From Dictyostelium discoideum (lineage: Eukaryota): DNA of 6,581 nt. Made by a program: the position numbers and the translations under genes. This document shows, one piece after another, positions 847 to 6,581 of this stretch. Location: assembly GCA_000004695.1 (NCBI GenBank), contig CH709156.1:1-6581 (forward strand), in the 5' to 3' direction. The notes under the pieces were generated by a model, which did no database searches, was not told where the DNA came from, and saw only the letters and a program-made list of their open reading frames with translations. Position 1 is the first letter of the stretch; each line of letters begins with the position of its first letter.

Positions 847-2298
847 ATGGACTTCTCTCAAATTACTAACTCTCTTAAAAATTCTTTTTGTGATAATAAT
901 TATTTTAATACAGGTATCATTCTTGATGAAATGAAGATCGTTAAGGAAATTTCGAAAGGTTATGAATTGGAAACTAAACTCATTATGTCTGAAGTCATCA
1001 ACGACCAGTATAAGAGCTTAAATATTACATATCAAAATGGTATCAAATGGATCAAGATTGACAATCAACTTAAAATCGTCGTCCCTCAAATTGACGATGT
1101 CATCCATTTAATCATTTCAAGTTATCATGATTCTGCTATTGCTGGACACTGGAGTAATCGTAAAACTTCTGAATTAGTCAAAAGAAATTTCTACTGGTAT
1201 GGAATGATGGAAGATATCCAACTCTACTGCAAGAATTGCAAAGTTTGTCTATGCGCCACAGATGCACACCAAAGAGCCATGGGATTGTACTTGCCATCTC
1301 ATGTACCTGTCAGATGCTTCATGGAAATCAATATGGACTTTATATCCGGGTTGGATGCCTGCACTGTTGATCAAGTTGAGTATACAAGAATATTGGTAGT
1401 AGTTGACCGTCTATCAAAGTTTGTAGTACTCATTCCCATTCCAAATCATACAACGTCAATTCAAGTTATCAACTTTATTCAAGATCAAGTCTTCTTTACG
1501 TTCGGTATGCCATCAGTCATCATCAGCGATAATGATCCTTTGTTCACATCAATACCTTGGAAGAAATGGATACAAGCCAACAATATTACTCACAATACAT
1601 GCCTACCTTACCACCATCAAGGTAATGGTCAAGCTGAAATCATGGTCAGAATTGTCACAAATGCTCTCAGAAAGTGCCTAATCAATTCCAAGTTTGTTTC
1701 TAATCCAGATATATCATCCATTGAGTTAAATAATATTCAAAATGATTGGGTCGGTTACTTGAAAAGTGTACAATTCTGCATCAACAATACTGTTTCTGAA
1801 AGTACTTCATTTACACCATTTCAAGTTCTCACTGGTTCTCATACAAGGTCTCCAATATCATTAATCATGCAATATGAAGACGACAAGTACTCAAGATCTT
1901 TAGGGTTGGACAAGAAGTCGTATTGTGAATTCGTTCAACACAAACTCAATATCCTAGATGTGGTCCAAGATAACCTGACTGATAGTATCGAACGTTCAAG
2001 ACAGCAGTATAATAAGAATAAATCACCTAATATCCTGGTGGAAGGTGATATAGTATATCTTCAAGAACTCAATACTGGTGCGCACCCAATTAGAAAGTTA
2101 GATATCCGAAGGACAGGGCCATATACAGTATGTAAACTCATGGAGAAGGGTAACGTTATGGTCCGTTTGTTCAAGAGTGATGAGGTTAAAGATGAACAAG
2201 TGGTTCACATTTCAAGACTAACTCTGGTTCCTAGTGCTGGTTACATTTCCCACATCGATCAATCTTCTTTTGATAATCCCAATTTAGACGTCGAATGA
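847..2298 (+). CDS. Ty3/gypsy-type retrotransposon integrase (IN) ORF. It is isolated, with no reverse transcriptase or RNase H in frame upstream; a frame-1 stop TAA lies at 838-840.
   Basis: HHCC zinc finger YHDSAIAGH...FYWYGMMEDIQLYCKNCKVC (nt 1126-1239). Catalytic D164 (MDFISGLD, nt 1336-1338), D228 (IISDNDPLFTS, nt 1528-1530) and E264 (YHHQGNGQAE, nt 1636-1638) give exact D,D(35)E spacing. GDIVYLQ motif and GPY/F module RRTGPYTV (nt 2116-2124). Confidence 0.9.
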   Translation: MDFSQITNSLKNSFCDNNYFNTGIILDEMKIVKEISKGYELETKLIMSEVINDQYKSLNITYQNGIKWIKIDNQLKIVVPQIDDVIHLIISSYHDSAIAGHWSNRKTSELVKRNFYWYGMMEDIQLYCKNCKVCLCATDAHQRAMGLYLPSHVPVRCFMEINMDFISGLDACTVDQVEYTRILVVVDRLSKFVVLIPIPNHTTSIQVINFIQDQVFFTFGMPSVIISDNDPLFTSIPWKKWIQANNITHNTCLPYHHQGNGQAEIMVRIVTNALRKCLINSKFVSNPDISSIELNNIQNDWVGYLKSVQFCINNTVSESTSFTPFQVLTGSHTRSPISLIMQYEDDKYSRSLGLDKKSYCEFVQHKLNILDVVQDNLTDSIERSRQQYNKNKSPNILVEGDIVYLQELNTGAHPIRKLDIRRTGPYTVCKLMEKGNVMVRLFKSDEVKDEQVVHISRLTLVPSAGYISHIDQSSFDNPNLDVE

Positions 2299-3199
2299 GT
2301 CAAGAAATCCCGACACGAATGGCCAGGTTAGTCATGGTAATGACACGTCACCATCAGACGTTGATCTTACAAGGGATCAGTCCAGGTCATTACAGTTATC
2401 ATCACCATCATTTTCTGATAATGATAATAATATTATTGATACTAATAATTCATATATAGGTAATGCTGCAGCTCAAGATGATCGATCAATTTCAATTCAT
2501 GTACATGATAAAGATTTAGTTGCCATTGGTCCATCCATAAGTATGGATAATCACTCAATCTCAAGTAATGCTTTACATACTGATAATCATTCAATCAATT
2601 TTGGTATTTCTCATATGGATCAATCTGGTAATAGTTCCACTCAGTTGGAAAAAGAGGGTAGATTATTATCAAATAATAATAACAATTCTAGCAATATAGT
2701 AAATAATAATACATCAGCCCAACATCAATCATCGATTCAAGATATAGATTGGAATAATAATCCGGTAAATAATAAAAATAGTATATCAACAATATCAGAA
2801 CCAATTGGTAGCAATGATTTTAATCAATCAATTCAACAACAGAATAATATCAATCTCAATAAACTAATCAATACAGAATCACTAAAGAATAATATAAAGA
2901 GTAAATCATTTATAAATAGAATCAATCAACTCAAAGAATATGAGACTAGTAGTGAATATGATCGCAAGCCCAATAATAGCAGTAATCAACTAATCACAGA
3001 ACTAATGTTATCACCAATACCACCAAATACATTTACAATAATAAAGAAAAGGACATACAAAATAGTTAATAAGAATAAAACATTTATAGAGTATCTAATT
3101 TCAGTATCAGATTCACTAGCATGGGTATCAGCAGTAACAATGAAAAGACAACATAATCAACAAGAAATCAATTTGAAAATTATATCAAATCAGGACTAG
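2288..3199 (+). pseudogene. +1-frame continuation of the integrase reading frame (open from 2288, overlapping the IN stop at 2296-2298). Asn/Ser-rich low-complexity linker plus a C-terminal chromodomain-like segment (TFTIIKKRTYKIVNKNKTFIEYLISVSDSLAWVSAVTM, nt 3029-3142). The ORF track reports only the ATG-initiated part, 2543-3199.
   Basis: Manual translation: frame 2 has a stop at 2285-2287 and is then open to the TAG at 3197-3199. The chromo-like call rests on a loose match to the chromodomain pattern (hydrophobic-x-V/I-E/K...R...EYL[VI]..., then a W-containing strand). Terminal chromodomains follow the GPY/F module in chromoviruses such as Skipper, which is established knowledge. Confidence 0.45.
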
Positions 3200-3353
3200 A
3201 AAATAAACAATAAAATTCTAAAATTTAAAATAAATAAACAGTATAATTAAATTCGCAGTAAAAATCTACCCCATAAACCTGAAATCAGTATTGGTCTATA
3301 TTGAGAAATAACAAAGAATGAATAAAAGTATAAAAATAGAATTCTTAAAATAG

Positions 3354-3388
3354 GTTGTAACAAGATCTCAAAAAAATATCTTGTTAAT
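3354..3388. repeat. Perfect 9-bp inverted repeat taacaagat / atcttgtta with an 11-nt A-rich loop
   Basis: Read directly. Confidence 0.7.
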
Positions 3389-3411
3389 ACTAATATTTAT
3401 TTAATTTTATG

Positions 3412-3433
3412 AAATGTTCTAAACAGAACATTT
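3412..3433. repeat. Perfect 9-bp inverted repeat aaatgttct / agaacattt with a 4-nt loop (aaac). It shares the AATGTTCT/AGAACATT half-sites with the palindrome at 749-766.
   Basis: Read directly. Confidence 0.7.
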
Positions 3434-3712
3434 AAAAATAACTATTAATATTGAATTGATAATTTAATATTAAATTATTACTAACTTAATTCATTTTAAT
3501 AAATTGTTTCATTTTATATAATAAATTCACTAAACACAACTAAACAATAATTCAAAAATAAATAATAATAATTTAGAATATAGTTTTGTTTCAACATTTT
3601 GTTATGACACATACAATTCAGAAAATAATAATAATTTATTTTATTATTTTGTTTAAAGGGGTTATCTCCCGTTGTAATTAAATTTAATTAATTTTAAATT
3701 AAATTTAATTTT

Positions 3713-3713
<1 letters not shown>

Positions 3714-3750
<37 letters not shown>
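3714..3750. repeat. Poly(A) tract of 37 A residues, preceded by an AT palindromic repeat (aattaaatttaatt x2, 3676-3710)
   Basis: Counted directly. Confidence 0.9.
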
Positions 3751-3755
<5 letters not shown>

Positions 3756-3925
3756 TTGAATTTCACAAAAAGTTTTCATAACAGATATTAGATACCAGAT
3801 ATTAAAAATGCCACACACAAAATCACCAAATAAAATAATAATATAAATTTAAAAATAATTTAATTAGAAGAGAAAATAATAATTAAATTAAAATAATATA
3901 ATATTGTAGTTTAAATTGGATCTAA

Positions 3926-4053
3926 CCCTATCGGCCGAGGTTGGAGTAGTTAATAGATTTGAGTTCGCTCAAATCTAAGGACTATAAAAGGGAACTAGGT
4001 TTCCAATTCAACCTCAGTAGTAAATATATACAAATAATAAAAACACGATAGGG
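3926..4053. ncRNA. Candidate structured element (ncRNA or transposon-terminal structure) in a GC-richer island. Not a tRNA.
   Basis: The outer stem is ccctatcg 3926-3933 pairing with cgataggg 4046-4053. The inner stem is gaggttg 3937-3943 pairing with caacctc 4010-4016. A central perfect 9-bp stem agatttgag/ctcaaatct carries a UUCG tetraloop (3955-3976). A TATA-like ctataaaag lies at 3983-3991. GC content is clearly above the flanking ~90% AT sequence. No tRNA A/B boxes or cloverleaf were found on either strand. Confidence 0.3.
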
Positions 4054-4166
4054 CTACGGTCATTAATTAATTTTGTGTACATTTATTTCTTAAATAATTA
4101 ATCATTTTACTTTAATAATAGAATAAATAAATAATTAAATTTTATTAAATAATTTATTTTAAGAGA

Positions 4167-4508
4167 ATGTCGACTAATAATAACGAAGATATTGATAATT
4201 ATGAATTGCAACAACAGGATAATGAGGAACAACAACAACCACAGGTATCAACATTCAATGAACAGCAACGTCAGATAAGGGAACAGCAGCAGGTAATAGA
4301 TAAACAAAATCAACAACACATTCAATTAATAAATCAACAATCTCAACAACAATTGAATAATCATACGACACCACCATCATCACCCAACATTACAACACCA
4401 ATAACTTCAGCAGCAATAACCAACACAATAAAGATATCATTAGGAAAAATTAACACTGATGATACCGACCACCAGTTGTTACATATCCCTCTAAATATAA
4501 AATTCTAA
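4167..4508 (+). CDS. Small Gln-rich hypothetical protein (113 aa)
   Basis: ORF track: ATG in an aagagaATGtc context, Q/N-rich, P/T-rich C-terminal half. No homology recognised. It may be ORF1 of the downstream transposon-like unit or an independent gene. Confidence 0.35.
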   Translation: MSTNNNEDIDNYELQQQDNEEQQQPQVSTFNEQQRQIREQQQVIDKQNQQHIQLINQQSQQQLNNHTTPPSSPNITTPITSAAITNTIKISLGKINTDDTDHQLLHIPLNIKF

Positions 4509-4557
4509 GTACTAAATCATATATCTACTTGCCATAATGCTAAAATTTGAATAAAAT

Positions 4558-4608
4558 GAAAAAAAAAAAAAAAAAACGTAAAAACTCGAGGAAAAAAAAA
4601 AAAAAAAA
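4558..4608. repeat. Two poly(A) tracts (A19 at 4558-4576 and A17 at 4592-4608) flanking a cgtaaaaactcgagg spacer
   Basis: Counted directly. They explain the artefactual KKKKKK N-terminus of track ORF 4547, which starts at TTG rather than ATG. Confidence 0.85.
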
Positions 4609-4639
4609 TATTATTTTTAATTTCCAGCCAGCAAACAAA

Positions 4640-5476
4640 ATGAATTTAAATAACATATCATGCATTAATTGCAGAGAAAAATTAAAGAATTTTAAAAATA
4701 TTATTATTCATTATATTATGCATAAAAATATATGTCCATTTTGTCTTGCATATTACCGTTCTTATAAACAATTTTATGATGTAAATGGACATTCCAACAT
4801 CAAAAAATGTAAAAATGAACAAAATAAAATTATTACAAATAATCAAAAAAGAGATAGCTTTTATAAAAAATTAATGGATATTACTGGTGAAAAAATAAAA
4901 TATCCAACAAATGATTCAGATGACCCATGTAAACATTTATGTAACCAAAACCAAGATGAAATTTTTTATCAAGAAAATAATGAAAATAATGAAAATAATC
5001 AAACAATTGATAATGAAGAAAATCATGATATAATTGGGTTGGTACATAGTGAAGATGAAAACAATGAAATTAGAATAGATGAAAATGAAGCAAACATTAA
5101 TAATGAAAATAATGAAAATAATGAAAATGAAAATGCTCAAAACGAACCAATAAATAATAATCTAAATAATAATTTAGATAATGAAAAATCAAAAAAAAAA
5201 TTAAATGAAACTGAAATTGAATTTTTAATGTTGGGAATTGAAAACTCAATAAGTTTAAAGCTACTTGAAAAATTTAAAAGTTTTATTGACAAAAATAAAA
5301 CCAATTTAAATCAAATAAGATACACACCTCAATATATGGATAAATTATTTATGGAAGATTTTCAAATAAAAGGAGAAACATTTATAAATAAAAATTATGA
5401 TCACTCAATTTTTTATTTTGAAATTAAAAAAGTATTAGAAACTTTATTAAATAAAAAGCAATTTTTGAAAGAATAG
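4640..5476 (+). CDS. N-terminal part of a TNP2/CACTA-KDZ-like transposase: zinc-finger domain (C-x2-C-x12-H-x3-H at nt 4661-4723, then CPFC) plus an acidic N/E-rich repeat region
   Basis: First in-frame ATG after the poly(A) tracts (4640, MNLNNISCINCREKLKNFKNIIIHYIMHKNICPFC...). Zinc-binding N-termini (Transpos_assoc-type CxxC...CxxC) are characteristic of TNP2-family transposases, which is established knowledge. The stop is at 5474-5476. Confidence 0.55.
   Translation: MNLNNISCINCREKLKNFKNIIIHYIMHKNICPFCLAYYRSYKQFYDVNGHSNIKKCKNEQNKIITNNQKRDSFYKKLMDITGEKIKYPTNDSDDPCKHLCNQNQDEIFYQENNENNENNQTIDNEENHDIIGLVHSEDENNEIRIDENEANINNENNENNENENAQNEPINNNLNNNLDNEKSKKKLNETEIEFLMLGIENSISLKLLEKFKSFIDKNKTNLNQIRYTPQYMDKLFMEDFQIKGETFINKNYDHSIFYFEIKKVLETLLNKKQFLKE
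4973..5135 (+). repeat. Coding trinucleotide/9-mer repeats (AATAATGAA)n encoding (NEN)n in two blocks (~4973-5000 and ~5099-5135)
   Basis: Read directly. They give rise to the spurious antisense ORF 4937-5140. Confidence 0.8.
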
Positions 5477-6581
5477 ATTTTGATACAGATTTTGAAACTG
5501 GAATTTATACAAATTATAAAAGTGGTCAACAATTTAAAGATTTAAAAAATAAAAATAAAAATAAAATTGTTTTACTTAGAATATTCACTGATAGTATGCA
5601 GTGTCAAAACAAGAAAGATTATACTATAATGCTGGATATAGAAAATTATATTGGAAATGAATTTAAAAATAATAAATTATTATTATTTGTAGTACCAAAT
5701 GATTGGTTACTTAATTTTCATCAAACAATTAGGGCATTGTTTTCATCTTTTATTGGTAATGGCTTTAATTTAATTATTGAAAATGAACAAATAGATGTTG
5801 TACCGTTTGGACTGACAATGGATATTCCAGAATTTAGAGCATCCTGTAAACTTAATGGACATAATTCAAATGAATATGCATGTCACACATGTGACAAACC
5901 AAGAGATGGTTTATTTATTTGCAAATCAGGTACATTAAGAAAACAAGAAGATATTACAAATTTTCACTCCACCAAACCAAATTATGCTGAACTAAATGCT
6001 GATATAGAATTAAAAAAAGTATGGGAAAAAAAAGCAAAAGATATTGGTATCAAAGGTGTGGACAGAGGGTGGGTCGAACCTTTGTCCATTAATTATTTAA
6101 AAACACAACCAGACATTTTACATAATATTTTATTAGGTGTCGCACAAAAATGTTTAAATTACATTTTTGATAAATATAAAAATAAAATTGCAAATTTTTT
6201 AAATAATTTAAAAAATGCAAAAATAATAGATAACAAACCAAAACCTTCAATTTCACTATTTGCAAATAAAACAAGGAAAGGAAGAGAGAATAGATCAATA
6301 ATATATTACCTTTTAATATCAATTAAAAATCAAATATCAAATGATGATTTTTTAATTATGGAACAATTCGTAACTATATGTTTTAAATTATATAGTGACT
6401 CTTTTGATGAAAATGATTTAAATTCACTTCAAGTATTAATTGAATCGTTTAATGCAAAAGTAAATTTAATTACTGAAACAGAAATAATGAATTTCCACTT
6501 GTTGTTACATTATCCAATCTATATAAAAAATTGGGGTGCACCAAAATACACTTCAGCTGAAACTTTTGAAGCACAATTATC
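5452..6581 (+). CDS. Catalytic core of a TNP2 / En-Spm(CACTA) / KDZ-Plavaka superfamily DDE transposase. Open frame-1 segment with no stop in 1130 nt, continuing beyond the window.
   Basis: Manual translation with no stop from 5452 to 6581. Motifs: LLRIFTDSMQ (nt 5572-5601; cf. ILSSDKTQL / LSTDGFNPF), VVPNDWLLN (cf. TPYNLPPWL), DIPEFRASCKLNGHNSNEYACHTC (nt 5821-5892; cf. WTINDFPAY...G...CPVC), DILHNILLGV (nt 6112-6141; cf. DVMHIEKNV) and HLLLHYPIYIKNWGAPKYTSAETFEAQL (nt 6496-6579; cf. HLFLHL..EDI..WGP....MYPFERFMG..L). It is not in the ORF track because it has no stop codon in the window. Confidence 0.7.

Follow-up and report, generated by a model that had tools for sequence, protein, structure and literature searches.

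The transposase reading frame that fills the right-hand third of the window (the whole stretch of Dictyostelium discoideum DNA analysed, 6,581 nucleotides) is broken by a single-base deletion that, on comparison with related copies, is shown to be private to this copy: a run of six Ts in the family has become a run of five. The deletion lies in a truncated copy of a transposon of predicted CACTA/Mirage/Chapaev (CMC) type, and it is most probably a real slippage mutation. As a one-base loss in a repeat copy it would be a case of ordinary decay; a base-calling slip is the less likely reading, and a designed frameshift or an intron is rejected.

Results

Two halves of one reading frame

The ORF list and the stop map agree with the original prediction that a single frame break splits the transposase into two overlapping ORFs (Table 1). 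Some 70 stops fall in frame 1 ahead of 5455, after which the frame is clear to 6581, and the overlap of the two open frames, 5455-5473, is 19 nt long and includes a run of five As (5453-5457) as well as the run of five Ts (5462-5466). The T run and the TAG that closes frame 2 had been placed correctly; the stop map corrects the remaining geometry, in which the last frame-1 TAA had been put at 5449-5451 with frame 1 opening at 5452, the overlap at 24 nt, and the A run at 5455-5459. Stops make up 77 of the 678 codons (11.4%) in the non-coding frame 3, and with stops so frequent, stretches of 310 and 375 codons free of them would arise by chance with probabilities of about 6e-17 and 2e-20. Sequences 5' and 3' of the break share homologues in a single uninterrupted protein family.

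Table 1. Positions of features in the window
Feature	Position	Strand	Basis or remark
Minus-strand ORF DDB_G0294218	63-398	-	exact sequence match
LTR-retrotransposon-type integrase (Integrase_H2C2 + rve)	847-3199		gag and RT absent upstream in window
DNA transposon copy fragment	4483-6581	+	truncated on left at 4483, cut on right by contig end
Frame 2, stop-free	4544 to TAG 5474-5476	+	stop map; ORF list gives ORF 4547-5476
Transposase N-terminal part, frame 2	4640-5476	+	family start MNLNNISC = ATG 4640; tail Q-F-L-K-E, then TAG
Cys/His zinc-finger-like motif, CINC ... HYIMH ... CPFC	4661-4744	+	conserved in both subfamilies
Final frame-1 stop, TAA	5452-5454	+	stop map
Frame 1, stop-free	5455-6581	+	stop map; runs off contig end
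Transposase catalytic part, frame 1	5455-6581	+	translation; reaches contig end
T5 tract, lesion site	5462-5466	+	one T fewer than T6/T7 of other copies
Premature TAG	5474-5476	+	met in frame 2 after deletion
First catalytic Asp (LLRIFTD)	5590-5592	+	aligned to NTDG Asp of CMC-type transposases; nearly invariant in family
Second catalytic Asp (LTMDIPEF)	5821-5823	+	aligned to D of DAxAR...GCxFC; invariant in family
C-H-x-C motif	5881-5892	+	after second catalytic Asp
Catalytic Glu (TSAETFEAQ)	6568-6570	+	11 nt before contig end; aligned to E of SAFxFE; invariant in family

The protein belongs with CMC-type transposases

Calling the protein a transposase had been a guess, and no Pfam model recognises it: neither of the two halves nor any of four full-length relatives matches a family, even at E <= 10. 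Profile searches bear the guess out, and show the protein to be a CMC-type DDE transposase whose intact relatives are about 830 amino acids long and encoded by one intronless ORF. A profile of 11 family members (A2), searched against 1.84 billion representatives, retrieved 49 proteins at E <= 1e-3, the distant ones at E values between 7e-8 and 1e-3. When ten of these distant proteins were scanned, two passed the cut-off (28.6) of PF02992 Transposase_21—P0066 with 42.3 bits and P0071 with 36.6 bits—and others touched DUF4218 or DUF1258. Alignment of A2 with a distant comparison set, A3, by hhalign gave a probability of 99.3% and E = 2.7e-20 over 482 columns, a score that is not fully independent, A3 having been chosen among the matches to A2. 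This circularity appears to be countered by the library-wide E-values, which are significant alone, and by the extent of the alignment, which reaches far past the region first matched.

In the hhalign alignment the Dictyostelium motif LLRIFTD pairs with NTDG of the distant CMC-type set, LTMDIPEF...CHTC with DAxAR...GCxFC, PDILHNILLGV with ExLHxIxLGV, and HLLLHYP..WGAPKYTSAETFE with HLLLH..WGPLWxxSAFxFE. The D, D, E triad and the C..C motif fall in matching columns, and are invariant or nearly so in both the family and the comparison set. The Dictyostelium proteins are thus like the CMC superfamily (PF02992 Transposase_21; tnp2, En-Spm) in their triad and Cys cluster, but differ in having no direct Pfam match and only about 17% identity to the distant set. 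An AlphaFold2 model made from the 11-sequence alignment was unusable (mean pLDDT 35.7).

The lesion is private to the window copy

Homologues of the transposase were sought with the two window frames joined conceptually as the query. The search returned 33 D. discoideum proteins, several at 100% query coverage, and all homologues came from D. discoideum. Thirty-seven of the 38 family proteins that span the break read the site in frame, as KK(Q/H/N)F(F/L)E..DF (for example KKQFFERIDF); the window product alone carries QFLKE*. Among the in-frame proteins are those of the AX4 chromosomal copies DDB_G0267274, DDB_G0270820, DDB_G0267280 and DDB_G0267352, and a subfamily of 48% identity is likewise in frame here (KKNFLEYLDF). 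In the protein alignment the relatives run uninterrupted across the site (...VLETLLNKKQFFERIDFDTDFETGIY...), and the window has LLNKKQFLKE* in frame 2 and, in frame 1, KAIFERIDFDT.

The same picture emerges from DNA. Each of the five related copies compared here has one base more than the window at 5462-5466, the tract being T6 in three, T7 in one and ATTTTT in one. Two of the T6 copies, L001 and L002, differ from the window across 161 nt by one extra T alone (TTTTTT for TTTTT); the third is L005, the ATTTTT copy, equal in total length, is L004, and the T7 copy is L007. L007 encodes a full protein of 831 amino acids in one 2496-nt intronless ORF whose translation is exactly the database protein. 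The family consensus, which the original prediction had proposed to consult, therefore runs in a single unbroken frame, the site being T6 or T7, and the comparison supports the proposal that a one-nucleotide homopolymer indel has disabled the transposase in a decaying copy.

At the level of codons, CAA TTT TTT GAA has become CAA TTT TTG AAA, and the stop follows four codons later; intact copies read the bases of this TAG as A-TAG-A inside AGA ATA GAT (R-I-D). Within the coding region the window has no private indel other than this loss of a T. One protein, P0004, was considered as a possible sharer of the deletion (it reads KKHIFERIDF and has a 9-amino-acid gap) and rejected: its DNA is full length at the site (CAC ATT TTT GAA), and its gap reflects a predicted intron that bypasses a TAG of P0004's own.

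A truncated copy in a contig of element fragments

The window is a complete unplaced contig of D. discoideum AX4, made up of transposable-element fragments, and the stretch 4483-6581 belongs to a DNA transposon copy. Homology to L001, L002 and L003 begins exactly at 4483, with 96.7-98.6% identity. On the outer side of this point at least 215 nt more are common to L001, L002, L003, L004 and L005, and to the right end of L001 (...GGTCATAGGTTCCCCGTCATTTTTTGAAAATGGGGT/ATATCCC); this outer terminal sequence was looked for throughout the window and is absent. The copy thus has both a private disabling lesion and independent structural damage, its left terminus being lost and what remains being nested among repeat fragments. 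It also carries six private substitutions (at 4794, 5844, 6149, 6246, 6301 and 6369), four of them non-synonymous at residues otherwise invariant in the aligned copies and two synonymous, a number too small to show relaxed selection.

Damage is general in this family. Every other copy examined is affected, by an 11-nt deletion, a 28-nt deletion, shortening of A8 to A7 or of A6 to A5, a stop codon, or large internal deletions, and on the finished AX4 chromosomes the family gene is annotated in two to four pieces per copy. The A8-to-A7 change is in L005 (at window 6026-6033) and the A6-to-A5 change in L004 (at window 6210-6215); gene predictors bridged both losses with invented introns, which appear as gaps in P0002 and P0004. 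Either homopolymer slippage is a recurrent lesion in this transposase family, as these tracts would suggest, or the assemblies concerned contain homopolymer errors. The transposase coding region has 35 A or T runs of at least 5, and so many targets for slippage.

L001 shows a further peculiarity: its positions 5516-6105 and 7824-8409 hold the left element region, with the initial 100 nt of the transposase ORF included, as an inverted repeat. The inverted repetition spans at least 590 nt and surrounds a 2.2-kb remnant; these may be terminal inverted repeats of great length, or else the arrangement may represent a palindromic deletion derivative. A generic search for inverted repeats at the transposon ends was dominated by low-complexity matches.

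To the left of the transposon lies an ORF of 113 amino acids, Q/N-rich (4167-4508), which the truncated transposon cuts at 4483. The flank 4143-4484 matches L006 4576-4888, just after the integrase core of that locus, with 67% nucleotide identity up to the junction; the distance from integrase core to flank is about 1.9 kb in the window (2265-4142) as against some 160 nt in L006. A non-coding repeat at 384-848, possibly a retroelement LTR or terminal repeat, is 94% identical to L001 13889-14181, where it adjoins an RVT_1 gene, and 82-86% identical to L004 in both orientations. A run of 37 As (3714-3750) is followed by a short island richer in G+C at 3900-4070 (GGATCTAACCCTATCGGCCGAGGTTGGAGTAG...), in which we found no tRNA, no Rfam family and no match in the relatives' loci compared; tRNA and Rfam scans of the whole window likewise gave no match.

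The two other frame breaks are of different kinds

The original prediction had counted a one-nucleotide frame problem in three of three long genes, and had raised the possibility of a systematic assembly fault. This does not hold, the minus-strand break being a junction of fragments and the integrase break lying outside any homopolymer. Positions 113-171 of the minus-strand gene are a 59-nt fragment that is 98% identical to L001 10237-10295, from a gene that reads ...SDLVKWSFKGLIITPDSIKGPVINAKEQRSG...HLATYLRASKGRRK and that we read as a putative DIRS-1-type tyrosine recombinase. The homology stops at 113, and it is at this very point that the reading frame switches (break at 60-123). DDB_G0294218 is, as judged from this match, a chimera, and its break a junction of unrelated repeat fragments rather than a one-nucleotide indel. 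The next minus-strand frame ends ...FQVNVAPFGTP, which resembles a reverse-transcriptase motif.

The integrase passes from frame 1 to frame 2 at 2288-2298, within GACGTCGAATGAG, where there is no homopolymer, and frame 2 then stays open for about 300 further codons. Its only close relative is P0034, a D. cf. discoideum protein of 82% identity from locus L006. The P0034 ORF is continuous at the corresponding point, and its next residues loosely match window frame 2; nucleotide homology between the window integrase and L006 ends at 2264, 24 nt before the break. The P0034 locus has zf-CCHC and RT/RNase H genes upstream of the integrase. Since the three breaks belong to different classes, they give no sign of a systematic homopolymer artefact.

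Consequences for the product and its annotation

Positions 4556-5473 are annotated in AX4 as DDB_G0294224 (EAL60374.1, 306 amino acids, an exact translation), which starts at the ATG at 4556, upstream of the family start; UniProt names the product 'C2H2-type domain-containing protein'. The A tracts at 4559-4608 differ by 1-3 nt among copies, and this segment is therefore non-coding. Positions 5629-6581 are annotated as a partial gene, DDB_G0294226 (EAL60375.1, our P0041), whose product has residues private to the window. A literature search for the gene identifiers found no mention of them.

From the deletion it is 42 codons downstream to the first catalytic Asp, and the first ATG in frame 1, at 5596, is already past that residue, so no complete enzyme can be made from the window locus. 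A ribosome translating the T5 copy would read Q-F-L-K-E and then halt at the TAG. The resulting product would be a fragment of 278 amino acids (306 as annotated), with the zinc-finger-like N-terminus and zero catalytic residues, and the DDE domain would be left in frame 1 without a usable start before its first Asp.

Discussion

Two overlapping ORFs, one for DNA binding followed by a catalytic one in the -1 frame, are also the layout of orfA-orfB in bacterial IS1/IS3 elements, and the break in the window could be functional in the same manner, with programmed -1 ribosomal frameshifting or transcriptional slippage joining the ORFs to give a short DNA-binding protein and a rare full-length transposase. 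The shift required, from frame 2 to frame 1, is indeed -1, and both the A5 and the T5 run lie inside the overlap. However, the split is private to one copy: the 37 family proteins and five DNA copies are in frame at the site, and the relatives, among them the intact L007, have a single ORF. Moreover, the zero-frame contexts of the two runs, T AAA AAG and A TTT TTG, form no X XXY YYZ heptamer, and the 100 nt downstream fold with -5.5 kcal/mol (z = 0.20), no better than shuffled sequences, so that neither slippery heptamer nor downstream structure is present. The likeness to IS1/IS3 is superficial, and a functional frameshift extremely improbable. Splicing across the break has still less to recommend it, and we give it almost no credence. 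The short candidates from the GT at 5432 to the AGs at 5476 and 5488, 45 and 57 nt, are both of phase 0, as had been calculated, and only a length of 2 mod 3 would serve; the earlier conclusion that no intron is involved is thereby upheld. Eighteen longer GT-AG pairs (170-389 nt) do restore an open frame arithmetically, but every one would delete 57-130 conserved codons that are translated in relatives, in some cases including the first catalytic Asp; L007 is intronless, and the close copies differ from the window at the break by one base only.

A mistake in the data is the more serious competitor. The missing T would then reflect faulty base calling or assembly in an unplaced contig of low coverage, and the organism would have T6 and a frame open to the contig end. 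The window is a small unplaced AX4 contig, in an assembly that we take to be of the 2005 era; the difference is a change in homopolymer length; and the loss is the sole frame-disrupting difference in 1.94 kb, 4640-6581 otherwise showing neither stops nor indels when set against the family. In addition, the residues private to the window occur in no protein of the ACTFIT assembly, although this shares identical proteins with AX4. Among about 60 family proteins, GHSNIKKC, NDSDDP, AQKCLNY, RSIIYY and EQFVTI are found only in the window's two AX4 products, save that RSIIYY alone is also present in one unrelated copy. The ACTFIT-tagged assembly, GCA_054883475.1, has EAL72761.1 as KAM9940557.1 and EAL60339.2 as KAM9951301.1, and its strain is, on these identities, the same as AX4 or very close to it. 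Against an error stand the general state of the family, in which lesions are expected, nearly all other copies being damaged, including those on finished AX4 chromosomes, and the independent death of this copy through loss of its left terminal region; furthermore, a run of five or six Ts is short to be miscounted by Sanger chemistry. We regard an error as unlikely, though it deserves to be taken seriously, and a real mutation as several times the more probable, and we infer that the organism itself, and not the assembly alone, has the one-nucleotide loss. Replication slippage would have removed one T from a run of six, and the deletion would have struck an already defunct copy, which carries six private substitutions and whose left terminal region is shorter by at least 215 nt at the junction with a retroelement fragment.

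If the T5 tract is real, the N-terminal zinc-finger fragment DDB_G0294224 might be expressed on its own, bind the ends of the remaining family copies and damp their transposition, by analogy with the KP repressor of the P element or InsA of IS1. This seems very unlikely, and the loss of the promoter-proximal terminal region of the copy speaks against it.

The DNA transposon families of D. discoideum—Tdd, DDT and Thug—were charted by Glockner et al. (2001), as related in PMC5633606. The family of the window transposon resembles these in being multi-copy and mostly degenerate, with a product annotated only as hypothetical. Tdd-4 and Tdd-5 encode a transposase similar to Gypsy integrases (PMC2836005); the window transposon was considered as either of these and ruled out, its protein having no rve domain.

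For the annotation of the genome, DDB_G0294224 and DDB_G0294226 would be better treated as one transposase pseudogene than as two hypothetical genes. A side result is the placing of a Dictyostelium DNA-transposon protein in the CMC superfamily, contrary to the 2017 review in which the transposases of Dictyostelium DNA transposons are said to resemble no known transposases (PMC5633606), although this assignment may already be in repeat databases. The biological weight of the lesion itself is small: among the transposons of D. discoideum, a frameshifted, degenerate copy is the rule.
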